This document shows, in pieces, positions 4,701 to 60,013 of a stretch of 64,000 bases of DNA. A program made the translations under genes and the position numbers. The stretch comes from Longimicrobium sp. (GTDB taxonomy: Bacteria > Gemmatimonadota > Gemmatimonadetes > Longimicrobiales > Longimicrobiaceae), in assembly GCF_036399935.1 (NCBI RefSeq), contig NZ_DASWMD010000058.1, positions 1-64,000 of the forward strand. Direction: 5' to 3'. Below the pieces are notes generated by a model. The model searched no databases, was not told where the DNA came from, and saw nothing but the letters and a program-made list of their open reading frames with translations. The first letter of the stretch is position 1. The number at the start of each line of letters is the position of its first letter.

Positions 4701-7183
4701 TCGGCCAGCTCGCGCACCTTCAGGATCAGCGGGTCGCCCGCGAAGAAGGCGTTCAGCTCGTCGGGCGTGGCGAACTTCTCGGTGCGGCGACCCAGCCCCG
4801 CGACGATGCGGTTGGCCGCCTCGAGCACCGACTGCGCCTTGCGCTGGCGATCGTCCAGCAGCGCCTGGCGGTGCGCGTCGAAGGTCTCCAGCAGCTCCTC
4901 GCGCTTGGCCAGGATGTCGCCCAGGAACTGCTCGTGCTCGCCGAACTGGCTCTCGATCTCCTCCAGCTGCACCATCAGCCGCGAGAGCTGTTCGTCCGCC
5001 TTCTCGGGGTCCGTCGCCAGCCCCAGCGCGCTGGCCACGCTCTGTCCGAAGAGGGAGAACTGCGCGCCGAACTGGGCGACGGCCTCGGCCGAGCCCAGCG
5101 TCTTGCGGCGCTGGGCGGCGCGGGCGCGGGCCTGGTTGAGCCCCGCGTAGATGGTGGAGATGGCGTCGACCACCCGCGTGCGCTGCACGGCGTCGTCCAC
5201 CTTGAGCGTCGCCATCAGCTCCGACAGCATGTCGAGGTCGGCGGACATGCCTTCCAGCGCGGCCACCGCCTCGCCGATCCCCTTGGCCGTCTCGGCCTTC
5301 TGCGCATCGGCATCCAGCACCGCCAGGCGCTCGGAGAAGGGCGCCAGCGCCTTGTCGCCGGCCAGGAACTCGCCCGTGGCCGCGCCGACGCGCTCGTGCT
5401 GGGCCTGCAGCTCGGCGCCCATCGCATCGATGGCGGCCGTGTCGACGTAGCGCAGCTCGCGGATGGTGAGCAGGCGCCCGCGCTGGCGGGTGATCTCGTT
5501 CAGCGCGTCGACGAACTCCTGCACCTGCTTCCAGTCCTCCGGAACCAGCCGGGCGAGGAGGGCCGCGTGCTCGTCGCGCGCCTGCGCCATCGCCGCCTCG
5601 GACTGGCGGCGGATGCCCTCCACCTTTTCGAACTCGTCGAGCACCGACTCGCTGGTGGCGGCGATCTCGTGGAGCACGGCGCCCGCGCCCCGGCTGTCGG
5701 CGGCGTCCAGCCAGTGGTGCGCGTCGAACAGGCGGCGGGTGTTGCGGGTGAGCAGACGGTAGCGCTGCACCGACACTTCCGGGCTCTCGATCTCGCGCGC
5801 CAGCTCGAACAGGCTGGAGATGCCCCGCACCAGCTCGGCATTACCCAGGCGGCCCATGAAGGTGGCACCCGGGGGACGGGCGGCGGCGTGCTCGTCGGAG
5901 ACGAAGGGCGACTGCCAGATCTGCATGGGGTGCACGCGCGTGGGCTCTTCGCCCTCGGCGTGGAACAGCACCATGCGCCCGTCGCCCAGCACGGCATGGC
6001 CGTGGCCGAACAGCGGGTTCTGCAGCTTGCGCTGGATGAGGTTGTAGACGAAGAGCGCCGACTTGCCCGCCTCGTGCTCGTAGAAGACGTACATGACGTC
6101 TTCGCCGTTGGGCGAGCGGATGGCGCGCTGGAAGCGCATGCCGTCCATCCGCGCGTCGAACGCCTTGTGCTCGCCGTTCTGAAGGTAGTAGCCGCCCGGG
6201 AAGATGATCCCGTGGTCCTCGGGCAGCTGCACGCACGCCTGCACGATGGCGTCTACCCGGTCGATGCGCCCGCTGATGGTGTTGTAGACGAAGCCGCGCC
6301 ACGTGGTTTCGCGGTACGGCAGCACCTTCAGCAGCACCAGCGATCCCACGCGGGCGAAGTCGAAGGTGGCGTCGTCCAGCGACTGCGTCTTTTCATCCAC
6401 CAGCTCGCTGTGGATGCCCTGACCCGACTCGGTGTTGTTCTCGACCTTGATGGTCAGGTCGCCGCCCGTGGTTTCCACGAACAGCGTGTCGAGCACGTTC
6501 AGGTGGGGAAAGCGCCCGGTGACGGTGTGCTCGCGCCCCGCGCGCGTCCACTCGAAGTCGAACGGCGGCGGGAACGTGAGGTCGCGGTCGCCGCGGGCAT
6601 CCAGGTAGGTGACGTCGCCGCCGGGCGAGACGGCCCAGCGGAAGACGCGCACGTCGGTGCTGCGCTCGCCGATCTGGAACGCCGCCAGCAGCTTGCCGCC
6701 GGCCACGTCCAGCTGCAGCAGCCGCGCGTTCTTGTAGTAGGCGTACAGCTCGTCGAAGTCGCGGACGAAGGCCGGGTCGCCCAGGAAGCTGCCGGCCAGC
6801 GCCACGCCCTCCACGTCGAACCCGTCCGCGCCCTCCACCAGGCGGTAGAGGCCGAAGACGTCTTCCACGCGGGTGGTGGTCTTCAGCCCCAGGAAGACGT
6901 TGTAGCCGAACAGCAGCAGGCCGCCGACGGGAACGATGTCGCGGCCGATGCAGTTGTTTTCGGTGTGGATGCGAAGGCGTCCGATCACCTCCAGCCGGCT
7001 GTCGCCGAACTCGGCCAGCCGCTGCTCGTTGAGCGCGCCGGCGATGTCGCGCAGCCGGGTGCCCTGCTCGGTCAGCCGGCGGCGCAGCACCTCGTACGCG
7101 CCGCCCTCCGCGACCGCCTGGTCCACGGTGGTCTCGGCGGAGTCGGCGGCGGGCTCCCGCACGCCCGGGGACTGCTCGGACAT
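1793..7183 (-). CDS. Giant AAA+ ATPase-domain protein (1796 aa)
   Basis: Uninterrupted ORF with ATG start at 7183. Walker A is PPGYGKTT and Walker B-like is VMLYVDDIQ, placed about two-thirds of the way into the protein. Long coiled-coil/helical N-terminal region and Ala/Pro-rich C-terminal tail. Co-oriented downstream of the flotillin-NfeD pair. Confidence 0.7.
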   Translation of the reverse strand: MSEQSPGVREPAADSAETTVDQAVAEGGAYEVLRRRLTEQGTRLRDIAGALNEQRLAEFGDSRLEVIGRLRIHTENNCIGRDIVPVGGLLLFGYNVFLGLKTTTRVEDVFGLYRLVEGADGFDVEGVALAGSFLGDPAFVRDFDELYAYYKNARLLQLDVAGGKLLAAFQIGERSTDVRVFRWAVSPGGDVTYLDARGDRDLTFPPPFDFEWTRAGREHTVTGRFPHLNVLDTLFVETTGGDLTIKVENNTESGQGIHSELVDEKTQSLDDATFDFARVGSLVLLKVLPYRETTWRGFVYNTISGRIDRVDAIVQACVQLPEDHGIIFPGGYYLQNGEHKAFDARMDGMRFQRAIRSPNGEDVMYVFYEHEAGKSALFVYNLIQRKLQNPLFGHGHAVLGDGRMVLFHAEGEEPTRVHPMQIWQSPFVSDEHAAARPPGATFMGRLGNAELVRGISSLFELAREIESPEVSVQRYRLLTRNTRRLFDAHHWLDAADSRGAGAVLHEIAATSESVLDEFEKVEGIRRQSEAAMAQARDEHAALLARLVPEDWKQVQEFVDALNEITRQRGRLLTIRELRYVDTAAIDAMGAELQAQHERVGAATGEFLAGDKALAPFSERLAVLDADAQKAETAKGIGEAVAALEGMSADLDMLSELMATLKVDDAVQRTRVVDAISTIYAGLNQARARAAQRRKTLGSAEAVAQFGAQFSLFGQSVASALGLATDPEKADEQLSRLMVQLEEIESQFGEHEQFLGDILAKREELLETFDAHRQALLDDRQRKAQSVLEAANRIVAGLGRRTEKFATPDELNAFFAGDPLILKVRELAERLRALKDPVKADDVEARVKSARDGAVRALRDRTDLFEGGGNVIKLGRHRFSVSTQPLDLTILPRGDELAVHLTGTDFMEPIHSEELAALRDYWQVSLESESPTLYRGEYLAGEVLAAAQAGAEGLSMELLRKHAAEGDALGKTVVDFAAPRYRDGYQRGIHDHDATLILRTALAQLEAAGELVHAPEPRALAALFWAAAQGDEDAREWKAGVASAKAMQGLFGTRSAADALRGQIANRLRAFAEANALPFSAAVAADSASYLFDELAGGHEGLILSLPARELTDALLSRLGEADLRTAFGQMLEQLQDRPAARYEHVIHWLQALCTDAALAPIARYVPEAAALILTRNQLQRRPNHAQPLATVEGLLGEHPRIDGGRLTLAIDEFLGRLRDHRDRFLPGYRRYQAIRQEIATRERDALRLGELRARPLTSFVRNKLINDTYLPIIGDNLAKQIGTVGEGKRSDLMGLLMMISPPGYGKTTLMEYVAHRLGLVFVKVNGPALGHEVRSLDPAQAPDATSRQELEKLGLALEMGNNVMLYVDDIQHTHPEFLQKFISLCDGTRRIEGVWRGGTKTYDLRGKKFCVVMAGNPYTESGEVFKIPDMLANRADIYNLGDVLGGMEDAFTLSYIENSLTSNPVLAPLATREMADLYLFADRAKGLDVSTNGLSHAYGAAEINEIVETLKRIMKARDVVYRVNQQYIASAAQADRYRTEPAFKLQGSYRNMNKLAEKISPVMNDAELQQLISDHYQGEAQLLTTGAEENLLKLKELRGVLTPDEAARWEQIKRDFLRNKAMGSDDADVGGRVVAQLADIAGGLQALGAAASAPAPAAEPPPAPEPVRLPDELPDVIRAAIAPLVEAIHASQQVIRVGQAQQSQAAEAMLRVISAVRAQPVTVVQPVAAAASTVAAEDPVPAAEPAAVTEPVPVAAGEQGDATAAEESRMEEALQNLPIVGDGKPLRIWPLPKKQS

Positions 7184-46497: not shown

Positions 46498-48534
46498 TCA
46501 CGGCACGCCAGCTGGCCGGAATGCCGGGAAGGTGCGGCCGATGTACGACGCCACTCCCGTCGTGCGTTCGGCCGCAGCATCCGCGCTCAGCGCAGCGGCG
46601 AGCGCGCGGCGCATCCCGGGCTCATCCCCTTCGCCTTGCGCGATGTGCGCAAGCCGCACGTACAGCCAGGGGAGCGAATCGTCGCTCCGCGTGGGACTTG
46701 CCAGCGCCTGCGCGAACTGCTGCCTCGCCGTGGCCGCGTCCTGACCGAAAAACGCGAGCGTGCCAAGCAGGTAATGCGCTCCGAAACGGGTGGCGTACAG
46801 GTCCGGCTCTGGAACGTCGTGGAGCATTCGCTCGAGTTCCGCCTTCGCGGATGCCACGTCCTGGCGGAACATCGCAAAAACGTAGGCCCGCATGCCGCCG
46901 GCATTCGCGCGTGCCTCGCCCAGCAGCGCCGGGTCCCAGCGCGGAACCAGGCTTTCGGGATCCAACTCCACGGACAGCACCGGCGCCGGCACCCTGATGC
47001 GGAAGGGCGTCGACTCTCCTCGAATGCGGATGTTTCGTGTGACCGCTCCACCCTCGAACGTCACCTGGACAGGAAGCTCCAGGTCGTACGCCGGGCCCTC
47101 CTGACGTATCGTGCCCTGCACCGACCGGCCCGCTCGCCTCCATTCCAGCGTCGGCTGCGGAAGCCCGGAGCGCTCGTACCACTGTGTCCAGAAGGTGCCC
47201 AGATCCCGTCCCGCGCCACGTTCCACCGCAGCCTTCCACTGCGGCCAGGTGACCTGCTCACCCGCGTGATCGCGGACGAACCGCTGGAGCACCGCGCGAA
47301 ACCTCTCCCGCCCGACCGCGCGCGCCAGCACCTCGTGGGCGAGAAAGCCCTTTCCATCGGCTATATCGTGCGAAACGTGGGCAAGGAACCCGGTGTCCGG
47401 CAACGCGTCGAGGGGAAAGTCGAACCCGGATTGGGCCAGGTAGGCGTAGCCGCGCAGCCCATGCGTGAACGACATCCCCGGGTAGCCCAGCCTCCGGAAC
47501 GACCGGGCGGCCGCGGGGCCCTCCATCACCTCCACGACGCGCAGAGCGCCGTACTGGGCCATGGCCTCGTCCAGAAGATAGCTGCCGCGCTCGCCGCGGT
47601 GCCGCACGGCAATCCCCCACCACTGGTGCCCCACTTCGTGCGCAAAGAAGCCCATGTTGAACGGCTCTTCCAGGTAGGTCTCGGTGGAGAGGATGAATCC
47701 GTCCAGGCTCGCGCCGTCGAATCCGGCGGCCCCCGCCTGTGCGGCCGGCGCCTCCGCGAGCGAAAACGCACCCCCCGGCAACGGGCCGAACTCCTCCACC
47801 AGCGCGTCGACCACCTCGCCCAGCCGCTGGGCGAGCGCGTTCACGTTGGTCCGCCGCTTCAGCGAGTATACCGTGATCGGCCGCGCACCGCCTGCGTGAT
47901 CGACGTAGTACCGCGCCGCCGCGAAGGCGAACTCGGCGGGGCGGTCCACCACGAACGAAAAGACCCCTGCTCGGCCCTCGTCCGCTCCGCCGGCCCTGCG
48001 GCCAGTGGACACGACCGTGACGCCCCCGGGCACCTGGAAGCGCAGGGTGCCGGTGCCGGTTCCATCACCCCACTTCGGATACCACGTGGCGCCGGCGAAC
48101 GAGCCCTCTTCACCCAGATACAGCAGGAACCCGGGCGTTTCGCCCCCCGCGTACGAAAACCGCAGCCGCACCGGCTCGTCGGGCGGAAACGGCGCCCGCG
48201 GCGCGACGATCCACGTCGGGGGCTTTCCATCGGCCACCCGGCGCGTCAGCGTGGCCGGGCCCGCGCTCCGGTCGGGGGAGAGCACCTCCACCTGCAGGCT
48301 GTCGAACTCCGCCCGCAGGCGAAGCTCGACGGTGTCGCGGGATGCCGCTGCCGCGGGGAGGCGAAGGATCCCCCGGGCCTGAAGCCGGTGCGCGGCCGGA
48401 TCCAGTGCCACCTCCAATTCGTAATGGGGAGACGCCGCCGGGGCGCCGGCCGCCTCCTGCGCATGGCCGCCACCCGCAAGAACCCCGGATAGCAGCGTGG
48501 CTGCGAGGTAGGCGGCTGGTCGCGGGTCGTACAT
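46498..48534 (-). CDS. M1-family zinc metallopeptidase (aminopeptidase N-like), secreted
   Basis: Signal peptide MYDPRPAAYLAATLLSGVLAGG. HEVGHQWWG zinc motif plus the downstream LLDEAMAQYG Glu. Helical/TPR-like C-terminus. Confidence 0.85.
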   Translation of the reverse strand: MYDPRPAAYLAATLLSGVLAGGGHAQEAAGAPAASPHYELEVALDPAAHRLQARGILRLPAAAASRDTVELRLRAEFDSLQVEVLSPDRSAGPATLTRRVADGKPPTWIVAPRAPFPPDEPVRLRFSYAGGETPGFLLYLGEEGSFAGATWYPKWGDGTGTGTLRFQVPGGVTVVSTGRRAGGADEGRAGVFSFVVDRPAEFAFAAARYYVDHAGGARPITVYSLKRRTNVNALAQRLGEVVDALVEEFGPLPGGAFSLAEAPAAQAGAAGFDGASLDGFILSTETYLEEPFNMGFFAHEVGHQWWGIAVRHRGERGSYLLDEAMAQYGALRVVEVMEGPAAARSFRRLGYPGMSFTHGLRGYAYLAQSGFDFPLDALPDTGFLAHVSHDIADGKGFLAHEVLARAVGRERFRAVLQRFVRDHAGEQVTWPQWKAAVERGAGRDLGTFWTQWYERSGLPQPTLEWRRAGRSVQGTIRQEGPAYDLELPVQVTFEGGAVTRNIRIRGESTPFRIRVPAPVLSVELDPESLVPRWDPALLGEARANAGGMRAYVFAMFRQDVASAKAELERMLHDVPEPDLYATRFGAHYLLGTLAFFGQDAATARQQFAQALASPTRSDDSLPWLYVRLAHIAQGEGDEPGMRRALAAALSADAAAERTTGVASYIGRTFPAFRPAGVP

Positions 48535-51202: not shown

Positions 51203-53100
51203 TGGCGGATCGGAACAGCGAAGAGGTCGGAAGCGCCGAGCGCAGCTTCCAATTCCCTCCAGACGAAATCGCTGCGGGTGGTGCCAACGTGGGAATCGCC
51301 ATTCTGGATCAGCCGGTTGCGCATGGCGCGGGGATACACCTGCCCCGAGCCGTGGATGAACCCGTCGCTGGGGATGCGGCCCGGCGCCGTGAACGCGTGC
51401 CACGTGGCGTCGGCGCCGTTCATCGCCAGAATCGCCGCGAGGGCGGGTACCAACTGCCATGGCCGGTACCAGAACTGCGCATAATGCCGGTGGCGATCGT
51501 ACGCCTCCTGGATCCGGCGCGCTACGGCCCGCTCGCCACACGACGATTCCGGTGGGCAGTCGCTTGGGGTCCAGAAGATCCGCCACGCGACCCAGCGCTT
51601 GGGCGTATGCGTCTGAATACCCACGCGCGTGAAGCTCTCGTTGAAGCCGTTCGTGCGATTGAGAAACGGGCTGTACGGCACGTCGTCCTCGTAGAACGGA
51701 TGCCACAAGAGCAGGTCGGGGACCATCCCGATGTTGAAAAGGGCAACTTCCAGCACCTGGACGTTGATGGCCACGATCGCACCCTGGTTGGGGCTGTCCA
51801 GCGTCACCACGCCCCGGACACTCCCCGGCCGGTTCACCTCCGCCCACTGGGCGAGCGAGCGCAAGACCAGACCGCCGTTGCTGTGCCCGATGAGGATCGT
51901 CTGATTGCCCGTGGTGGGCAGGTAGGGCAGGACTTCCTCCCGCTGCGACGGGATCGAAGGGCGCCAATTGATGCTAGGCCGAATGTGCGCGTTCGTCTGG
52001 AACCCGCAGCGGACCCACCCATCCATTCTCAACCACGCATCGCCACTACTCCGGATTCCGTGCTGAAAGAGCACGTTCACCCCGGAAGCCGCCGGCGGGC
52101 AGGGATCCGCGGGGGGCGCTGGCGGCGGCTCCTCCTCCGGCCCGCAGGGCGAGCCGTCATCCGGGCAGATTTCGAACGACAGCGGCGTAATGGTATTGCG
52201 CGCGGGCCGCGAGCCGCGCTTCTCCCGCCGTTCACGATCCTTTTGCGGGTTCTCGTGAAAGCGCAGCATGCGAAGCCGGTTCACCTGCCGCTGCCGCACC
52301 CGGCCGGCAGGCGAGTTGTGGCTGGTGGTGACCTCTACCTGCTCGAGGACGTACCTGGGCCCACGCCGGCGAAACGTGCGCACCACTTCCCCGTGCTGCT
52401 GCACCTGCTCGGCATTTTTGGCCGGGCGGCCCAGCCCGATCTCCTCTGGAGCAAGTCCGTTGGTGATCTGGATCTCGTCGGGCCGGGGCCGCTTGATCAC
52501 GGCTCGTGGGCCCGCCGCGGCGGCAAGCGGCTCCGCGGCCGGAGAGAGCGCGTCCAGCGTGTCGATGGCGGCCGCCTCCAGCACCAATCCGTCCGTGATC
52601 TGCTCGTGCGACGGGCCCGCGCCCACCGCCTGCATCGCCTGCAGTTCGTTCGACACCGGCTGGCGGTACGCGTCGTACCGCGTGAGGTAATCCCCTACGC
52701 TTCGCGTGCGTCGCGTCAGGTTCACCGGGGTGGTGAGCGGATCCTCCAGCGGATCCGTCTGGTCCAGCACCTGGATGATCCTTCCATAGGCGTCGTAGCC
52801 ACCCTCGATGCGCTGCGTTTCCGGGACGTGATACGCCACGAGCTGGTTGGATACCGCACCGGTGACCGGGTCGGTGATGGGCCGCTCCGAATCGATGGTG
52901 GTGCTGCCCTCCTGGTACAGTTCGGCCAGGTAGTACGTGTCGGCCTGGTCGATGTCGGGGTCGGGCTGAATCGTCGCCGATGGACGGGTGTTCTCCGGCC
53001 CGATCAGGGCACCATCGCCGGGGCCGTCGTTGCATGCGGCGGCGAGGATGCCTGCGAGCGCGAGCAGCCGGGCTGCGCGCCTCCGATGAAGACTTCGCAT
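51199..53100 (-). CDS. Lipoprotein with C-terminal alpha/beta-hydrolase (lipase/esterase-like) domain
   Basis: Lipobox LLALAGILAAAC. ILIGHSNGGLVLRSL (GHSxG nucleophile elbow). ATGA overlap with the downstream propeller gene. Confidence 0.7.
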   Translation of the reverse strand: MRSLHRRRAARLLALAGILAAACNDGPGDGALIGPENTRPSATIQPDPDIDQADTYYLAELYQEGSTTIDSERPITDPVTGAVSNQLVAYHVPETQRIEGGYDAYGRIIQVLDQTDPLEDPLTTPVNLTRRTRSVGDYLTRYDAYRQPVSNELQAMQAVGAGPSHEQITDGLVLEAAAIDTLDALSPAAEPLAAAAGPRAVIKRPRPDEIQITNGLAPEEIGLGRPAKNAEQVQQHGEVVRTFRRRGPRYVLEQVEVTTSHNSPAGRVRQRQVNRLRMLRFHENPQKDRERREKRGSRPARNTITPLSFEICPDDGSPCGPEEEPPPAPPADPCPPAASGVNVLFQHGIRSSGDAWLRMDGWVRCGFQTNAHIRPSINWRPSIPSQREEVLPYLPTTGNQTILIGHSNGGLVLRSLAQWAEVNRPGSVRGVVTLDSPNQGAIVAINVQVLEVALFNIGMVPDLLLWHPFYEDDVPYSPFLNRTNGFNESFTRVGIQTHTPKRWVAWRIFWTPSDCPPESSCGERAVARRIQEAYDRHRHYAQFWYRPWQLVPALAAILAMNGADATWHAFTAPGRIPSDGFIHGSGQVYPRAMRNRLIQNGDSHVGTTRSDFVWRELEAALGASDLFAVPIRQ

Positions 53101-53276
53101 TGTGGGGTGCTCCGGGCCAAAGCGAGGGAGAGATAAAAGCGGAAGGCGGGCGTATGTTTCGCGCCGGAAACAAGAGTAGCACCCTTTGCCCGGACCAACA
53201 AGAACTTCGAAGGACGCTCGGTACGGCGTTCCTCGTGGACCGTCTCAGCCCGGTATCCGTCGCACCTGTGCCTTAG

Positions 53277-53468
53277 CTACGTGCGCGAGCGTCGCGGGTG
53301 GGAGCCGGCGCAGGTGGCCGCGGCCCGCGCCCTGCTGTCCGACCTTCCCCGATCGAAGAAGACGCGGGCCTCGCCGTGCGGGCCGACTCGCTGGAATTTA
53401 TCTACCCCACTGCGCGCCAGCCCCCGCCCGGCCGGCTGGCGCTGGTCCCCAGGCACCCGTGGCAAGCC
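53277..53468 (+). pseudogene. Frameshifted 3' fragment of the small HTH-family gene (copy of 35923..36112)
   Basis: About 85% nucleotide identity to the 3' half of 35744..36112. The reading frame is broken after ...KTRA. There is no 5' half. Confidence 0.6.
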
Positions 53469-53594
53469 GGCCCAGGCCTGTAGCCTCGCCCCTTTTCACG
53501 AGAAGCTTGCAACACGATGGTAGCAGCTTTATCATGCGGATGCGGCACCCACAAACCGCCGCAAAATGTACACACTTCTACTGCGAGGTGAACA

Positions 53595-53765
53595 ATGGAG
53601 TGCCTGAACTTCCTGCAGGGGCCGCTGGCCAGCCAACACCTGGAAGGCACGCGCGGCGCCGTCGCCCACCTGGGGTTCGTGGCCCAGGCGATGGCCACGC
53701 AGTCCAAGTGCCCCAACTGCTGCGTCTCGAACTCGGGGGGATGCACCGCCCCGTGTGGCGAGTAG
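53595..53765 (+). CDS. Candidate lanthipeptide precursor (56 aa)
   Basis: GAGGTG Shine-Dalgarno 6 nt upstream of the ATG. Sequence MECLNFLQGPLASQHLEGTRGAVAHLGFVAQAMA-TQSKCPNCCVSNSGGCTAPCGE. The C-terminal 22 residues hold 5 Cys and 5 Ser/Thr. A modification kinase and a LanC-like gene follow directly. Confidence 0.6.
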   Translation: MECLNFLQGPLASQHLEGTRGAVAHLGFVAQAMATQSKCPNCCVSNSGGCTAPCGE

Positions 53766-53774
53766 CAGTCCCGG

Positions 53775-53804
53775 CGAGCGGCCCGGCATCCGCCGGGCCG
53801 CTCG
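53775..53804 (+). terminator. Perfect 13-bp-stem hairpin between precursor and kinase genes (attenuator candidate)
   Basis: CGAGCGGCCCGGC-atcc-GCCGGGCCGCTCG, 10 nt after the precursor stop. No U-tract follows. Confidence 0.5.
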
Positions 53805-53877
53805 TGATCCCATGCCCCCTCGGCGCCCCCCTGCCCAACGCCGTCTCAGGACGCGAAGTCCATACGAGGTCCCGCGC

Positions 53878-54969
53878 ATGCTGCTGTCCAGCTCGCAGGT
53901 GGTTACCTACCTCCTGGAACACCGCTTTCTTTCCCCCGCGCAGGTGGTGGAGGGCGGGGTGCTCGTGGAGGACGTCTCGCGCCGCAACCGCAACTTCCGC
54001 GTGGTACCCGCCGAAGGGACGGCCTTTCTCGTGAAGCAGGCGGCGTACGCCGAAACCGCGGGCTCGGTGGCGCGCGAGGCGCAGGTCTACCGCATGCTGG
54101 CCGGGCTTCCACGCGGCCGCACGCTGGGTCGCAGCCTTCCCCGCTGCTTCGGGTACGACGACGGCGCCGGAGTGCTGGTGCTGGAACTCCTTCCCGGAGT
54201 GCAGGACCTGCGGCAGTACCACGTGCTCCGCCGCCACTTCCCCGTACGCGTAGCGCGGGCCGTGGGAAAGGCCCTGGGAACCCTGCACCGCACCACCCGC
54301 GGGCTCGCCGGGCCGGCGGAGGACAGCCGCCCCGGCTGGGCGCTCTCGCTGCACCTTCCCGGTCCACGCTTCCTGCAGACCGCCAGCGCCGCCAACGCGC
54401 AGCTGGTGCGGATCATCCAGCAGTACGGCGAGTTCACCGCGCTCCTGGACGAGGCGCGCGCCGGGTGGCGGCCCGAGGCGCTGATCCACCACGACATCAA
54501 GTGGGACAACCTGCTGGTGCGTGCCCCGGGCGGCGGCGCGCTCAAGATGATCGACTGGGAGCTGGCCCGGTACGGAGACCCCTGCTGGGACGTGGGATCG
54601 GCGTTCAACGACTACCTGACGTTCTGGCTGCACTCGGTACCCATCACCGGCGAAATTCCGCCCGAGCGCTTTCTGGAGCTCACCTGGTGCCCGCTGGAGC
54701 GCATGCACCCCGCGTTGCGCGCCCTGTGGGATGCCTACCTGCGCGAGACCGGCGCCGACGCGGCACAGGCGGCCGAGTGGCTTCCGCGCGCGGTGCGCTA
54801 CACCGGGGTGCGCCTGGTGCAGACCGCCTACGAGCAGATGCAGTCGTCGCTGGCGCTCACCGGCAACGTGGTGTGCATGCTCCAGCTGGCATGGAACCTC
54901 CTCCGCCGCCCGGCCGAGGCGGCCGGGACCCTCCTGGGGCTGGGCCTCCGCGAAAGGCTGGCCGCATGA
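53878..54969 (+). CDS. Stand-alone APH/protein-kinase-fold kinase (lanthipeptide LanK-like)
   Basis: GAGG Shine-Dalgarno. Catalytic loop IHHDIKWDNLLV (HxDxxxxN). IDWELARYGDPCWDVGS (the APH-family DFG-equivalent). 363 aa. ATGA-coupled to the next gene. Confidence 0.75.
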   Translation: MLLSSSQVVTYLLEHRFLSPAQVVEGGVLVEDVSRRNRNFRVVPAEGTAFLVKQAAYAETAGSVAREAQVYRMLAGLPRGRTLGRSLPRCFGYDDGAGVLVLELLPGVQDLRQYHVLRRHFPVRVARAVGKALGTLHRTTRGLAGPAEDSRPGWALSLHLPGPRFLQTASAANAQLVRIIQQYGEFTALLDEARAGWRPEALIHHDIKWDNLLVRAPGGGALKMIDWELARYGDPCWDVGSAFNDYLTFWLHSVPITGEIPPERFLELTWCPLERMHPALRALWDAYLRETGADAAQAAEWLPRAVRYTGVRLVQTAYEQMQSSLALTGNVVCMLQLAWNLLRRPAEAAGTLLGLGLRERLAA

Positions 54970-57272
54970 CCCCCTACCTGCACCAGGTGGACGCCGCCGT
55001 GCGGCACGGGGCGATCCTTTCGCCCACCCGCTTCGCCTGGCTCGGCCGCCCCTCCCCGCCCCTTCCGCGCGCCACGCTGCGTGCCCTGACCCCCGCCACG
55101 GCGCGTGCGTACCTTCGCCACCGCATCCAGCAGGCGTTGTACACCGGCCTCTACACCCGCGGCGATGCCATGGCGCCTCCCTCGGAGCCCGGTCAGGCCG
55201 ACGTGGGCACCACCTCCTTCATCGCCGCGCTCTCGGCCGCCAACACGGGAAAGGGGGCGCTTCAGGACGGATGGGTGGTGGAGGCGGTGGATGGGAGCGC
55301 CGTGCAGGTGCGGCGGGGCGGCCTGGCGCTGCGGGTGCCGCGCCGGATGCTGCCCCGAGGCCGGACGCCCGCGCCCGGCACGACCGTGCGGATGCGGGGC
55401 GAACGGCAGCTGCTGAGCTACTCGCCAGGGTACTACGTGGCCATGGGCGACGTGGGATTGGGCGCCGCGGGCGAGCCCCTGGTGCGCGTCTACTGGCACC
55501 TGGAGCCGGCCGGTGCCGCGCCGGTGATGCATGCGCTCACGGGTGCGCTCAACCGCGCGCGGCTCCCCTTTCACTTCAAGGTCCTCAACGCGCCGGAGCG
55601 CTTCGACCGCTGCGACGCGGGGGTGCTCTACTTTCCGCAGGCGCGAGGGCGCGAGGTGCTGGCGCGGGTGGCGCGGGTCCATCCACGGGCGGCGGCGCAC
55701 CTGCGGCCCCGCGTGCCGGCGTTCACGCTGGAACTTGCGCCCGGGCTGGGGCTGGCGGAGGACCCCAGGGCGGGCGAGAGCTTTGGCCTGCACCGGTGCG
55801 GGCTCCTTGCCGACGCCCTCATCGAGGCGCACGAGGCGGGAGTCCGCGGGCAGGCGGAGCGGCGCGCGCGGTGCGTAGCGCACTTTCGCGCCCACGGAGT
55901 CGATCCCGATGCGCCGTACCTGAACCCCGGGAGCAGCAACGACTATCGGTTGCCGCCGCGCGCCGCGCGCCCGGCTGGCCGTCCAGTCCGCACGCCCGCC
56001 CCGGGCGTACCCGCGGAGGCGCAGTCCGCGGCGCCGCCGCGCGAGGTTTCGCTGCGGATCGCGACGGAGCTTGGGGCACGGCTGGCCGAGGCCGCGGTGT
56101 GGCACGGCGATCGGTGCAACTGGGTGGGCATGATCCCCGACGGGAGCAGCCGGTCGTACTCGTCGCTGGAGCCGGACGTGTACGCGGGGACGGCCGGGGT
56201 GGGCCTGTTCGCGGCGGAGCTGGCGCGGGCCACCGGCGACGGCGGGCTGCACCGGCTGGCGATCGGAGCGGTGCGCCAGTCGCTGCACCGGGTGGAGACG
56301 CACTTTCCCCCCTACCCGTGGGGCCTGTACGCCGGCGTGGCGGGCATCGCCTTCGCGGCGGCGCGCGTGGGCGTCCTGCTCGGCGAGGCAGAGCTGGCGG
56401 AGCGCGCGCGGGCCCTGGTGGACCGGGCGCGGGTGGAGAGCGATCCCGGCGAATTCGACCTGATGTTCGGCCTCGCGGGCGGCGTGCTCGCGCTGCTGGC
56501 GATGGAGCAGACGCTGGGCGACCCCTCGCTGCGGCCGCAAGCGGCGCGGCTGGGCGAGGAGCTCCTGGCGCTGGGCATGCCGATGCACGGGGGAACCGCG
56601 TGGCGCTCGATGCAGGCCACGGGCGAGCGGCCGCTCACCGGGCTTTCGCACGGCGCGGCGGGCGCGGGCCTCGCCTTTCTGGAACTGTTCCGTGCCACCG
56701 GCGACGCACGCTTCCGGGACGGGGCGGAGGGCGCGTTCGCCTTCGAACGACACTGGTTCGACGCCCGGCAGGGCAACTGGGCCGACCTGCGCAAGGAGCG
56801 GGCGCGCGGCCGGGGCCCGGTGCCGGTCGATACGCAGTGGTGCCACGGCTCGGCGGGGATCGCGCTCTCGCGGCTGCGCGCCTGCGAGCTGCTGAAGGAC
56901 GAGGTGTACCGCCGCGAGGCCCGGGCCGCCCTGGAAGCCACCCGCAGGGCCGCCGCCGATGAGCTGGCGGGCACCGGCAACTTCTCCTTTTGCCACGGGC
57001 TTGCGGGGGCGGCGGAAGTCATCCGCGAGGGTGTCGCCTGCTTTGGCGGGGACGTGGATCCCGAGGGAGTGGCGGCCCGCATCGCCGCGGAGGGGGCCGC
57101 CAGCCACGCCCGCGGCATCCCGTGGCGGTGCGGAGTTTCCAGCAGCGACTCGCCCTCGCTCCTGCTCGGCCTGGCGGGGATCGGGCGTTTCTACCTGCGG
57201 CTGTTCGATCCCTCGCTTCCCTCCCTCCTGCTGGTGACCCCCGGGGCGTTCGCCCCCTCGCCAGCCGCCTGA
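54966..57272 (+). CDS. Fusion protein: about 380-aa N-terminal domain of unknown type (putative phospho-Ser/Thr lyase, HopA1-like?) plus C-terminal LanC-like cyclase
   Basis: C-terminal half has LanC motifs GLSHGAAG (SHG), WCHGSAG (WCxG) and FCHGLAG (CHG), so the Zn ligands are intact. The N-terminal half has no motif I can assign. 768 aa. Confidence 0.75.
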   Translation: MTPYLHQVDAAVRHGAILSPTRFAWLGRPSPPLPRATLRALTPATARAYLRHRIQQALYTGLYTRGDAMAPPSEPGQADVGTTSFIAALSAANTGKGALQDGWVVEAVDGSAVQVRRGGLALRVPRRMLPRGRTPAPGTTVRMRGERQLLSYSPGYYVAMGDVGLGAAGEPLVRVYWHLEPAGAAPVMHALTGALNRARLPFHFKVLNAPERFDRCDAGVLYFPQARGREVLARVARVHPRAAAHLRPRVPAFTLELAPGLGLAEDPRAGESFGLHRCGLLADALIEAHEAGVRGQAERRARCVAHFRAHGVDPDAPYLNPGSSNDYRLPPRAARPAGRPVRTPAPGVPAEAQSAAPPREVSLRIATELGARLAEAAVWHGDRCNWVGMIPDGSSRSYSSLEPDVYAGTAGVGLFAAELARATGDGGLHRLAIGAVRQSLHRVETHFPPYPWGLYAGVAGIAFAAARVGVLLGEAELAERARALVDRARVESDPGEFDLMFGLAGGVLALLAMEQTLGDPSLRPQAARLGEELLALGMPMHGGTAWRSMQATGERPLTGLSHGAAGAGLAFLELFRATGDARFRDGAEGAFAFERHWFDARQGNWADLRKERARGRGPVPVDTQWCHGSAGIALSRLRACELLKDEVYRREARAALEATRRAAADELAGTGNFSFCHGLAGAAEVIREGVACFGGDVDPEGVAARIAAEGAASHARGIPWRCGVSSSDSPSLLLGLAGIGRFYLRLFDPSLPSLLLVTPGAFAPSPAA

Positions 57273-60013
57273 GGCACGCCTCCGGATCGGCGCGGGGGAC
57301 GTGGGTCGGCTGGTGCCGCCGAAAGCCGCGGCCCCGGCGAATCCCCATCGGCAGGCACATCCGGCTGGGCCGCCGCTCCCGGATCGGGGGTGACATCGAT
57401 GATCAACGTGTCGGCGCGGCCACCGAACGACGCGACGAGGGTGTGCCGCCCCGGCGATTCGAACGCAACGTGCCGCAGGGCGGACGCCGGCACGATGCGT
57501 ACGTACGGACCCCCGGTGATCTCTACGCGGATCGGCGCTCCGGCGATCACACGCCCGCGTGCATCGTACGCCTGTGCGCGGAGTTCCAGCGGCTGGCCCA
57601 CCTGCGCGCGGGCCGTGCGCGGCGAAAGGCGCACCCGCGCGACCGGCGCCGTCACCACGACCTGCACCTGGACCTCACGGGCAACCGGCTCCCCGCTGGG
57701 CAGGGTATCTCCCGAGCCGCTGAGCCCATGCACCCGCACCGTCGTCCGTCCGATGCGACGCGCAACGACCCAGACGGCGGGCTCCCCGCGGAGGTGGGGG
57801 CTCGGGCGCGCGAAGGGGCGCAGGCGTACGACGGAGCTGTCGCCCACCGCCCAGCCGGATGCGCTGAGCGTCGCGTACCCGCCGCTGCACACGTCGGAAT
57901 GGCAGCGCTGTTCCTCGACGGAGAACGGGACGGAGTCGCCGACCGCCATCCAGACCTCGTCGCCCGTGCTCCCGGGCGCACTGACGAACCTGCTGATCGA
58001 GTTGACGGAGGCCTCGTAGCGCCGGCGCGCCGCCGCGGCTTCCAGGCGCAGGGCGGAATCGGGCTCGGGCACCTGCGGATCTACGTACTCGATCCGCACA
58101 CTGTCGCGCCGGTAGACCACGGGAACCTCCGGCCGCATCTGCCAGACCGAGGCCCACGCCGGCCGCAGCCCCACCAGCCTCGCGATCGTTGCGCTGTCGC
58201 GCAGCGTCAGCACCACGGCCCCGTTCTCCACGAGAGCCCCGGCATCGGCGGGGGGGCAGCTCGCGATCATCCCGGGCAGGCAGTACCGCGCATCCGCGGC
58301 GGCAACCAGCTCGGAGAGCGTGGCGAAGCGGCGGGCGCCCTCCCCGTGTCCGCGGCTGATCGAAAGTGAAAGCGAGCGCGGGCCATCGATGCCGTCGATG
58401 CCGATGCTCCATTGGTACGCCGGCTGGTATTGCGGGTCCTGGAGTTCCGACCAGCCCCAGCCGGCCGCCGTGTCTCGCGGAAAGATCACCCGTATCTCGC
58501 GCCGGCTCGCCAGCACCCGCGTGGTCCGGGTGCCAAGCGAGTCCTGGCCAGGATCCTGGGCCGGCCGCGCGTAAGGAGGTGCGGGCAGTGCGAAACGGGG
58601 GAGCCCCGCAACGGGGATGGGGGCGGGCTGGCATGGCTCGTCCTTCCACTGGGCGCTGCGGTTCTCGCAGGGTACGACCTTCGGATTGCGGCCCAGCGCA
58701 GGGCCTGCCTTCCCCCAGCAATGAACCCTGCCGTAGTCTGCCAGCGCACAGGCGTGCTCCGTGCCGACGGCCAGCGCGTACCACCTGCGCCCGGGAGCGA
58801 CCTCCACCGCGGCGGGCGAGCACCGGCCGCCGAGAAAGCAGAGGTCATCGTAGGCGGCTCCCGCGTCGGCGGCGCCTCGGTAATCCGGCGGGCCGCCGTC
58901 CGGTCCCGCGTTGGCGGTGGTGAGCGACCCCAGCTGGCCGTTCCTGTTTTCTCCCCAGCAGAAGACCCTCGCGTCCGCCGTCCGCGCGCACGCGAACTGG
59001 GAGCCCGCATGCACCTCGACCGCACGGCCCGGGAGCGGAACGTACTGCGCGCGGGGGGAGTTGGGCATGCGGCACCTCCCCAGCACGCACCGGTAGTTGT
59101 CACCCCAGCAGAACACCCGGCCGTCGGCGGCGACGGCGCAGGCCAGCACGTCGCCCGCGCCGACCTGGAGGAATTCTACACGGGAGGGATCGTCGTGGGA
59201 GCCGGGAACGCTGTCCGGCAGGATTCGCCGCGGGGTGGCGGTGCTGCACGGCCGGCTGGAGTACGGGAGCGGCTCGCTCGCGCAGCGGATCGCGGCGGAG
59301 TCGCCGGTCTGGCCACTCTGCCCGTACCCCCAGCAGTACACGCCGCGGTTGTGGGATGCCACGCCGCAGGTGAGCCGCCCCCGTGCGCTCAACTGGGAGA
59401 ACCGCAGGCCGCCCGTAACGGCGCCAGGCGCCCGGCTGAACGGCCCGCCGTCGCCCACCGAGTCGGGCGCCCAGGTGCCGTTGCCGAGCTCGCCCATCTC
59501 GTTCTTGCCCCAGCAGAAGGCCGCGCCATCGTGCGCCAGCGCACATGCGTGGGACCAGCCTGCCGCCACCGCTCGCACGTACCGCGGCGGCAGCTCCCCC
59601 TCCAACGGCAGCGGAAACACGCACGCCCCGTATCCGCACTCCCCGGGGACCGCCATCCTGGTTCCCGCCGAGTCGGTCCACCCGCCCGTCGCGCGAGGAT
59701 TGCACCACGCCTCCCAGGCGATCGTCACTGCGCAGACACCCGACTGCGACGGCGCGATGGATCGTACCCGCGCAGCCTGCCCATCCGCCGAGAGGACGCG
59801 GACAGGCGCCCCCTCTCGCTCGCCGATCCCACCCCAGCAGTACGCCGCCGCCGAAGTCGTCGTGATGCAGGTGACATCATCCGCGGCTGTCAGCGCGGCG
59901 AGCGTGTCGACGCCCACTGCCTGGACCCTGTCCGGCGACGGCGCGGGCCGGGGTGCGGCGCATCCGGCCAACGACACCGCGGCAAGAAGGAGTACGTTGG
60001 CGGTCCGGGGCAT
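57191..60013 (-). CDS. RCC1-repeat lipoprotein with C-terminal Big_2 (bacterial Ig-like) domain
   Basis: Lipobox LLLAAVSLAGC. Repeated CWGxNxxGQLG motifs. C-terminal Ig-like module. The 3' end overlaps the LanC-like gene convergently by about 80 bp. Confidence 0.7.
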   Translation of the reverse strand: MPRTANVLLLAAVSLAGCAAPRPAPSPDRVQAVGVDTLAALTAADDVTCITTTSAAAYCWGGIGEREGAPVRVLSADGQAARVRSIAPSQSGVCAVTIAWEAWCNPRATGGWTDSAGTRMAVPGECGYGACVFPLPLEGELPPRYVRAVAAGWSHACALAHDGAAFCWGKNEMGELGNGTWAPDSVGDGGPFSRAPGAVTGGLRFSQLSARGRLTCGVASHNRGVYCWGYGQSGQTGDSAAIRCASEPLPYSSRPCSTATPRRILPDSVPGSHDDPSRVEFLQVGAGDVLACAVAADGRVFCWGDNYRCVLGRCRMPNSPRAQYVPLPGRAVEVHAGSQFACARTADARVFCWGENRNGQLGSLTTANAGPDGGPPDYRGAADAGAAYDDLCFLGGRCSPAAVEVAPGRRWYALAVGTEHACALADYGRVHCWGKAGPALGRNPKVVPCENRSAQWKDEPCQPAPIPVAGLPRFALPAPPYARPAQDPGQDSLGTRTTRVLASRREIRVIFPRDTAAGWGWSELQDPQYQPAYQWSIGIDGIDGPRSLSLSISRGHGEGARRFATLSELVAAADARYCLPGMIASCPPADAGALVENGAVVLTLRDSATIARLVGLRPAWASVWQMRPEVPVVYRRDSVRIEYVDPQVPEPDSALRLEAAAARRRYEASVNSISRFVSAPGSTGDEVWMAVGDSVPFSVEEQRCHSDVCSGGYATLSASGWAVGDSSVVRLRPFARPSPHLRGEPAVWVVARRIGRTTVRVHGLSGSGDTLPSGEPVAREVQVQVVVTAPVARVRLSPRTARAQVGQPLELRAQAYDARGRVIAGAPIRVEITGGPYVRIVPASALRHVAFESPGRHTLVASFGGRADTLIIDVTPDPGAAAQPDVPADGDSPGPRLSAAPADPRPPRRSGGVPQAAGEGANAPGVTSRREGSEGSNSRR

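Follow-up and report, generated by a model that had tools for sequence, protein, structure and literature searches.

A putative lanA-lanK-lanYC cassette of class V lanthipeptide logic, with lyase and zinc cyclase in one chain, in a Longimicrobium genome

This study describes a three-gene cassette at positions 53595-57272 of a 64,000-nucleotide stretch of DNA (hereafter the window; contig NZ_DASWMD010000058.1), whose proteins are on record from a metagenome-assembled genome of Longimicrobium sp., phylum Gemmatimonadota. The cassette occupies 3.7 kb of a host genome with about 70% G+C, and its three co-directional plus-strand genes encode a 56-aa peptide, a 363-aa APH-fold kinase and a 768-aa protein. 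Taken together, the sequence points to a probable lanthipeptide cassette of the class V type, lanA-lanK-lanYC, that is self-contained and probably expressed as one operon from a promoter just 5' of the peptide gene. By its predicted domains, the cassette is LanA-LanK-LanY::LanC, that is, putative class V dehydration chemistry combined with a cyclase of the class I/II/IV type. The observations that carry this reading are the gene order, the domain identities, the intact catalytic residues, the coding signals, and the conservation across phyla of both the cassette and a motif in the leader. A preliminary description of this DNA, made from the letters alone, had reported three packed co-directional genes with an ATGA overlap, and every element of that arrangement was recovered, the kinase stop and the fusion-gene start overlapping at 54966-54969.

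The 768-aa fusion protein (54966-57272) matched two Pfam families, namely HopA1 (PF17914) at aa 153-319 (E=4e-38) and LANC_like at aa 400-755 (E=1.4e-48). Based on the HopA1 match, the N-terminal half was assigned as a HopA1-type phospho-Ser/Thr lyase (LanY; aa 1-332, 54966-55961), an assignment to which the PDB and Foldseek searches also point: the best PDB match of this domain by sequence was LxmY (9dk1_B, 2.6e-17). The AlphaFold2 model of the whole protein consists of two folded domains (mean pLDDT, the predicted local distance difference test score, 87), and its top Foldseek match was again LxmY (9dk1; E 3.6e-15; TM-score 0.75 on the target; about 27% identity over the structural alignment), an entry that Foldseek labels as the lexapeptide dehydratase complex LxmKY. 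Below LxmY followed LanC-fold matches to the cyclase domains of LicM2 and CuvL and to LanCL1, MadC and NisC. The two domains are joined by a disordered linker of 21 residues (aa 333-353, 55962-56024; pLDDT <50), which is variable in length and unconserved in the alignment of fusion homologues. The preliminary description had called the N-terminal region of about 380 aa unassigned and a putative lyase; the lyase proposal stood, and the region is now assigned to HopA1/LanY. Its further suggestion that LxmX and LxmY were fused had to be replaced, since LxmY is the HopA1 lyase and no LanX or LanD lies within 10 kb on either side of the cassette; the fusion is LanY::LanC.

The predicted catalytic residues of the lyase domain are R174, K205, R215 and Y222, each invariant or at least 90% conserved among 26 fusion proteins. 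Mutagenesis of CaoY identified the lyase residues Arg187, Lys219, Arg229 and Tyr236 (PMC9486802), and the spacing of this Arg/Lys/Arg/Tyr set is 31/10/7 in the window lyase versus 32/10/7 in CaoY. Pfam, NCBIfam and Foldseek identify the C-terminal half (aa 354-768, 56025-57272) as a zinc-dependent lanthionine cyclase domain of the LanC type, with the zinc ligands C626 (in WCHG) and C676 and H677 (in CHG) and the acid/base residue H562 (in SHG) all present, so that the intact SHG, WCHG and CHG motifs of the preliminary description were confirmed. In NisC, the zinc ligands are Cys284, Cys330 and His331 and the acid/base residue is His212, which correspond to C626, C676, H677 and H562, respectively. 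Among the same 26 fusions, C676 and H627 are invariant, and C626 and H677 are at least 90% conserved.

Concerning the kinase, the mechanically called open reading frame (ORF) begins with a GTG codon at 53755 (404 aa), and the likely start is the ATG at 53878, in agreement with the public gene call, which gives a LanK-type Ser/Thr kinase of 363 aa with an APH fold (53878-54969). The GTG-started ORFs of this region (404 aa from 53755 and 935 aa from 54465) were rejected as high-G+C artefacts, as the homologue alignment and the public gene calls favour ATG. The protein matched Pfam APH (PF01636) with E=1.2e-20, whereas the match to Pkinase was insignificant (E 0.04). Its best NCBIfam model was lant_syn_V_LxmK (NF038156; E 5e-30), and its best PDB match by sequence was the kinase of the lexapeptide dehydratase LxmKY (9dk1_A, 1.3e-9). 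The motifs comprise K53, E67, the catalytic loop H204-x-D206-xxxx-N211, the metal ligand in I-D226-W-E, and G233-D234-P, and each motif residue is at least 90% conserved among 67 orthologues; the HxDxxxxN and IDWE...GDP motifs on which the APH fold had originally been proposed are thus complete.

The putative LanA-like precursor gene (53595-53765) encodes the 56-aa peptide MECLNFLQGPLASQHLEGTRGAVAHLGFVAQAMATQSKCPNCCVSNSGGCTAPCGE. Its short leader, MECLNFLQGPLASQHLEGTRGAVAHLGFVAQAMA, contains the F-L-x-G family motif at residues 6-9, and beyond the leader/core boundary inferred here lies a putative 22-aa core, TQSKCPNCCVSNSGGCTAPCGE, with Thr35, Ser37, Ser45, Ser47 and Thr51 together with Cys39, 42, 43, 50 and 54; the leader is possibly cleaved after ...AQAMA. 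The peptide had been described as Cys/Ser/Thr-rich, which is borne out by five Cys and five Ser/Thr within its last 22 residues. When richness was defined as at least five Cys and at least five Ser/Thr in the last 22 residues of a segment, 3 of the 585 stop-to-stop segments of 40-150 aa in the whole window equalled the peptide. The G+C content at third codon positions (GC3) is 0.93 for the peptide ORF, compared with 0.90 for the two enzyme genes and 0.65-0.76 in the same frames of the flanking intergenic DNA, and the value of 0.93 is sustained across the leader half and the core half. A Shine-Dalgarno sequence, GAGGTGA, is located 6 nt 5' of the peptide ATG. About 60 nt 5' of the start codon, a sigma-70-like promoter candidate, TTGCAA-17-TATCAT (53507-53535), matches the consensus; it is unique within 53000-57600, where shuffles predict 0.1 such matches.

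Between the precursor and kinase genes, a perfect, G+C-rich hairpin of 13-14 bp (53774-53805) starts 9 nt past the precursor stop codon, with arms at 53775-53787 and 53792-53804 that are 100% complementary; the predicted fold of 53760-53880 has -53.8 kcal/mol (z=-2.7). A strong hairpin 3' of the precursor gene was also found in about 18 related loci, including three from Longimicrobiaceae (L032, L047 and L067). As no T-tract follows it, the hairpin is likely a processing/stability or attenuation element that would favour the precursor over the enzyme transcript. The public annotation also includes the peptide ORF, under the name hypothetical protein. Its GC3, its Cys/Ser/Thr richness, the Shine-Dalgarno sequence, the promoter match and the downstream hairpin support a real gene; taking them with the leader motif and the other short-leader loci described below, we regard this ORF as a genuine precursor in minimal form and not as debris.

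In known class V systems, dehydration is performed by a stand-alone LanK (PF01636) together with LanY (PF17914); in subgroup Va, LanD and the kinase-fold cyclase LanX join this pair and LanC is absent, whereas subgroup Vb uses a LanC cyclase (PMC12291118; PMC11186320). LxmX/LanX is a second kinase-fold protein, which acts with LanD as the cyclase for aminovinylcysteine (AviCys) (PMC9486802, PMC12291118). The window encodes both members of the class V pair, an APH kinase with intact motifs and a HopA1 lyase with the CaoY-type Arg/Lys/Arg/Tyr set. The hallmarks of subgroup Va, LanD plus LanX and a C-terminal aminovinylmethylcysteine (AviMeCys), were not found: within 10 kb on either side of the cassette there is neither a LanD (flavoprotein PF02441) nor a LanX or second APH gene, and the peptide ends in CGE, with no terminal Cys. 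Since LanC is present and LanD and LanX are missing over that distance, the logic of the window is Vb-like with LanY and LanC fused; a zinc LanC stands beside LanK and LanY, although within the 768-aa ORF and not as a separate polypeptide. The class V logic proposed in the preliminary description is therefore upheld by the LxmK-like kinase, the HopA1 lyase and the zinc LanC, and the closest characterised logic is that of subgroup Vb.

The class Vb system SmoK/SmoY/SmoC of massatide A (Pei et al. 2022 JACS, via PMC12291118, PMC11186320 and PMC12328550), as described in these later papers, has the same three activities and families as the window and likewise no LanD and no LanX. In that description, its LanC is stand-alone and its host is a Streptomyces, whereas in the window lyase and cyclase form one chain in a Gemmatimonadota host. 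By the same descriptions, the precursors also differ: the FLxG motif of the window peptide is that of another precursor family, which is unannotated. Among enzymes that have been solved and studied biochemically, those nearest to the kinase and the N-terminal domain are LxmK/LxmY (class Va; PDB 9dk1-9dk3) and CaoK/CaoY (cacaoidin), which share with the window the lyase Arg/Lys/Arg/Tyr set at matching spacing. Class Va systems, however, have LanD, a flavin-dependent Cys decarboxylase, and LanX and no LanC; in place of LanD and LanX, the window has a fused LanC.

Class IV (LanL) and class III (LanKC) enzymes resemble the window in that a kinase reaction is followed by phospho-Ser/Thr elimination and cyclisation; LanL also has a zinc LanC-type cyclase domain, and the Foldseek matches of the whole model include CuvL, ThurKC and SalKC. 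In contrast to the separate APH-fold kinase and HopA1-type lyase of the window, LanL and LanKC are single chains in the order lyase-kinase-cyclase, in which the lyase is of the OspF type and the kinase has the Pkinase fold (PF00069). The LanL and LanKC models matched the cyclase region only and scored far below their cut-offs (104 versus 650 bits and 73 versus 575 bits, respectively), which, together with the separate kinase, supports the earlier statement that this is not the class III/IV arrangement. The best NCBIfam model for the cyclase half was the C-terminal region of class II LanM (positions 542-932), and LicM2 was the best LanC-type structural match; the LanM score of 226 bits lies below the cut-off of 304 bits, and no LanM dehydratase domain (PF13575/DUF4135) is present.

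The architecture itself has been noticed before. Eyles et al. (2021) surveyed 1,340 HopA1 proteins, of which 96% adjoin a phosphotransferase and 20% are near or fused to LanC, and proposed the HopA1-LanC fusions as a new, uncharacterised lanthionine synthetase (PMC8153245). The window agrees with their clusters in combining HopA1 and LANC_like in one protein, in its adjacent phosphotransferase and in the small peptide gene that heads the operon (PMC8153245). Their study used RiPPER short-peptide detection and described actinobacterial families of about 100 aa, with no product determined; the leader domain of 105 aa, the very long substrates rich in Cys and the Gemmatimonadota members treated below do not appear in it (PMC8153245). 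A 2025 review knows class V members from actinobacteria only.

In the current study, a protein collection yielded about 40 clusters with the same two-domain architecture (36-47% identity), and a scan with one genome per species yielded at least 486 relatives in more than 10 phyla, including many Gram-negative lineages. The best 80 loci of these relatives belong to Chloroflexota, Acidobacteriota, Planctomycetota, Verrucomicrobiota, Bacteroidota, Pseudomonadota, Myxococcota, Actinomycetota, Cyanobacteriota and Gemmatimonadota and to one Nitrososphaeraceae metagenome-assembled genome. In about 70 of 82 loci, the gene directly 5' of the fusion gene encodes the kinase, and start/stop overlaps between the two were seen in the examples inspected. 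All-against-all clustering of 828 neighbouring ORFs from 84 loci recovered as recurrent families the fusion (82 loci), the kinase (66) and the precursor family (50) only; no transporter, protease, immunity or tailoring gene was shared by more than 7 loci. The uniqueness implied by the preliminary description was thus overstated, given the report of 2021 (PMC8153245) and at least 486 species-representative genomes in more than 10 phyla: the architecture is a widespread class V variant, flagged bioinformatically. An identical fusion protein is recorded from a JGI (Joint Genome Institute) metagenome contig of 290,821 bp, and a metagenome-contig scan with the window fusion protein returned no relative, either because the collection lacks this sample or because the pattern step missed it.

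In 50 of the related loci, the gene 5' of the kinase opens with a conserved domain of about 105 aa that ends in the F-L-x-G motif (consensus LEEDDLVEKLVPDPANPPDLVLLTGFLGKSAEEGYTRLYLDAELSSYVEIPEEDILHSEKLEKEQSPLGGSVVWVKRDAEL...AQASFLQGDI; pattern LVPDP...GF.G.S...RLY...GG..VWV...; examples are L011:4255-4785, L058:3471-4664, L031:1852-4653, L042:2092-4482 and L032:2159-4477). The region of the motif is the most conserved of the domain, the G of F-L-x-G being one of two invariant columns among 38 sequences. The domain had no match in Pfam, in NCBIfam (four long precursors tested) or among solved structures, and its proteins are named only 'hypothetical protein' in public sources. A profile search of 1.84 billion representatives found it in 2,931 clusters at 50% identity (E<=1e-3); among the 150 best matches listed, the domain is N-terminal in nearly all, in proteins of 114-816 aa. 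The tails behind it are rich in Cys, Thr, Ser and Pro, measure between 26 and about 770 residues, contain as many as 82 Cys and often consist of tandem repeats, with CPSAVDACP[ST] as a recurrent C-terminal motif. Such long-tailed precursors may be very large poly-thioether proteins.

The window peptide had no match in Pfam or NCBIfam (NHLP, Nif11 and other leader families), and it aligns to the leader-domain profile at the last 12 positions only, NFLQGPLASQHL. These positions include the family junction: NFLQGPL stands at residues 5-11, followed by the Cys/Ser/Thr-rich core, in a gene directly 5' of the kinase. FLQGPL is identical in the related locus L049, and the position of the gene matches that in the 50 related loci. 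A hidden or degraded leader domain upstream (53298-53594, same frame) was looked for and rejected, as a profile search at maximum sensitivity in six frames of 52001-53800 recovered the FLQGPL stretch only. Short leaders also occur in four other loci (L015, L039, L041 and L064), where a Met lies 11-22 residues before the motif, the domain is lacking and a Cys-rich tail follows; in L064, from another Gemmatimonadota genome, the core ...CKVSNGCPR resembles CCVSNSGGC of the window. In actinobacteria, the Family 11 peptides associated with HopA1-LanC carry GF[LI]KG and PFLQG motifs (PMC8153245). The 56-aa peptide is atypical for its enzyme family, whose usual substrates carry the N-terminal domain of about 105 aa, a point that the preliminary description missed.

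Several observations weigh against reading the locus as a functional cassette of the class V type. The kinase score of 104.6 bits against the LxmK model is far below the equivalog cut-off of 315 bits, and by its sequence the window kinase is best regarded as a distant relative of actinobacterial LxmK, not an equivalog. The acid/base residue H562 has an equivalent in 23 of the 26 fusion homologues, including the window copy, and is missing in the other three, so the family does not conserve the cyclase chemistry throughout. No homologue of the peptide turned up in a collection of 5.8 billion proteins, which makes it an orphan, and the leader domain is absent from the entire 64-kb window even at E<10; lacking it, the peptide could be a poor or dead substrate. 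Within 10 kb on either side of the cassette, there is no ABC transporter, protease or immunity gene, and our search of the full-text literature retrieved no experimental characterisation or product for a LanY::LanC fusion or for this locus.

If the cassette were a decaying remnant, its precursor would have recently lost at least about 300 nt at the 5' end, namely the leader domain, the 56-aa ORF would be a leftover that is processed no more, and the enzymes would still be intact only for want of time since the loss. Such a loss would account for a domain that is present in 50 related loci, including the Longimicrobiaceae loci L032, L047 and L067, and undetectable here, and it is in line with the stop codon immediately 5' of the peptide ATG, and with the lack of a database homologue for the peptide; no close relative of the locus was found. 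We nevertheless consider decay unlikely, because the short ORF has its own strong Shine-Dalgarno sequence, ATG, promoter-like site and downstream hairpin; because its GC3 is as high in one half as in the other; because no trace of the domain was found in any frame of the 1.6 kb upstream; because four unrelated loci (L015, L039, L041 and L064) independently have the short, domain-less form; and because both enzymes retain all catalytic residues without frameshifts.

The missing export and processing genes, the length of the usual substrates of this enzyme family (up to 816 aa) and the resemblance of the LanC domain to eukaryotic LanCL1/2, which add glutathione to dehydroamino acids, would also fit enzymes acting on a substrate encoded elsewhere, whether a long protein with the leader domain or, in a LanCL-like role of repair or thiol addition, proteins of the cell, with the small ORF incidental. 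This explanation appears quite improbable to us, since the small ORF combines the FLxG junction motif of the family with a Cys/Ser/Thr-rich tail at the syntenic position, its coding signal is as strong as that of the enzymes, and the 64-kb window holds no leader-domain gene. Least credible is a kinase that confers antibiotic resistance or phosphorylates a small molecule and lies beside a LanC-family protein by chance, an outcome that the preliminary description had named as fatal to its proposal. The general Pfam APH match and weak NCBIfam matches to thiamine, homoserine and methylthioribose kinases (E 1e-4 to 1e-5) could be taken in its favour, but the LxmK model exceeds any small-molecule kinase by 25 orders of magnitude, the closest solved relative is LxmK, the start/stop overlap between its gene and that of the lyase-cyclase is kept in the related loci inspected, the two genes are adjacent in about 70 of 82 loci, and 96% of HopA1 proteins are paired with such a phosphotransferase (PMC8153245). 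This alternative is effectively refuted by synteny.

Returning to the lanA-lanK-lanYC cassette, a mechanism can be proposed by homology to LxmKY/CaoKY and to NisC-type cyclases. The operon would be transcribed from the promoter at 53507-53535, and the hairpin after lanA would probably raise the precursor relative to the enzyme transcript. LanK and the LanY domain would form a 1:1 complex, as CaoK/CaoY and LxmK/LxmY do (PMC9486802; PDB 9dk1); translational coupling through the ATGA overlap would favour 1:1 synthesis of LanK and LanYC, which fits such a complex. The complex would dock on the short leader, with the FLQG motif as the likely docking element, expected to bind LanK as the leader of CaoA binds CaoK, and LanK would then phosphorylate Thr35, Ser37, Ser45, Ser47 and Thr51 with ATP. 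The LanY domain (R174, K205, R215, Y222) would eliminate the phosphate to give dehydrobutyrine and dehydroalanine, to which the tethered LanC zinc site (C626, C676, H677) would add Cys39, 42, 43, 50 and 54, so that the product would hold up to five (methyl)lanthionine rings. The cassette encodes neither leader removal nor export; either the host would have to supply them, or the product may remain inside the cell.

Regarding the surroundings of the cassette, the 3' end of the fusion gene shares 82 nt (57191-57272) with the 3' end of a convergent minus-strand gene for a 908-aa RCC1-repeat protein, and the last 11 or so residues of the window fusion protein are unconserved among homologues. The absence of an adjacent exporter, peptidase or immunity gene, as stated in the preliminary description, holds within 10 kb on either side, with a minus-strand gene of 678 aa about 5 kb upstream (window ~46498-48534) as a partial exception by its faint Peptidase_M1 match. 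M1-family aminopeptidases trim the leaders of some class III lanthipeptides. The gene lies on the other strand and is not kept beside the cassette elsewhere, and we claim no link between the two.

Other loci showed further features in their neighbourhoods. Directly after the fusion gene, two of the closest relatives (L085:7511-10248 and the P0011 contig) encode a HisKA_3 histidine kinase and a response regulator of the GerE type, and in L084 a sigma-70-like gene lies 5' of the precursor; the window has no HisKA_3, GerE-type or sigma-70-like gene of this kind. The archaeal assignment mentioned above concerns L004 (CAYTQD010000085.1), a 5-kb contig with a complete kinase and lyase-cyclase pair binned as a Nitrososphaeraceae archaeon; either an error in binning or a transfer into archaea could explain it. 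Several Longimicrobium/Longimicrobiaceae contigs (L056:5905-7722, L061:687-1688, L044, L066 and L068) matched the LanC part only and carry class I-type genes, namely a LanB C-terminal domain and an ABC transporter, from which it follows that the lineage also has other lanthipeptide systems.

The precursors of related loci were likewise diverse. Repeat-type precursors with no detectable leader domain were found at L045:2641-3168, L051:4117-4719, L060:3617-4228, L073:3900-4196, L020:3138-4616 and L062:3282-4367, with repeat units such as TSTQVCCPAQ, TAKTCKPTRNPCC, PATQTTCPQQTCGG and PTVPVVSCVTCTGISPIC, which suggests multi-core substrates. A Lys-rich stretch precedes a small Cys-containing tail at L001:6111-6260 and 6705-6932 (MAAKRSSKPTKADKKRSKR...) and at L064:3396-3689 (...MAATKKKKPAKKKPARAKPTKR...), and L001 has an extra stand-alone LANC_like gene upstream. 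In Kordia spp. (P0067, P0072, P0081, P0085, P0091 and P0094; L071 and L074), the leader-domain precursors share a near-invariant tail, ...P[VI]CGCGKCG(Q), with very few Ser/Thr nearby, which is odd for a lanthionine substrate.

The window copy is an intact, ordinary-looking member of the architecture flagged in 2021, unusual mainly in its stripped-down leader. We suggest, tentatively, that it may represent a naturally reduced version of a large lanthionine-forming system that is uncharacterised, spans many phyla and has poly-lanthionine 'lanthiproteins' as its usual substrates; in such proteins, the leader domain of about 105 aa would be followed by repeat tails rich in Cys, Thr, Ser and Pro, which reach about 770 aa and 82 Cys. 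If the 56-aa peptide is processed, the F-L-x-G motif alone would suffice for recognition by LanK and LanYC, and the three-gene locus would then be the simplest handle on substrate recognition and cross-linking across the family. All characterised class V lanthipeptides are of actinomycete origin and made by separate enzymes, and it is still debated whether class V ring closure is spontaneous or due to LanX or LanC. With LanY::LanC and a separate LanK, a 22-residue core and a one-motif leader, the cassette offers a convenient system for the coupling of dehydration and zinc-dependent cyclisation, and it also suits the questions of what a minimal leader is and what Gram-negative soil phyla produce with such chemistry. 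The wider precursor family of 2,931 clusters, some members of which have dozens of potential thioether rings, could be a sizeable blind spot of short-peptide mining for RiPPs (peptides that are made on the ribosome and modified after translation).

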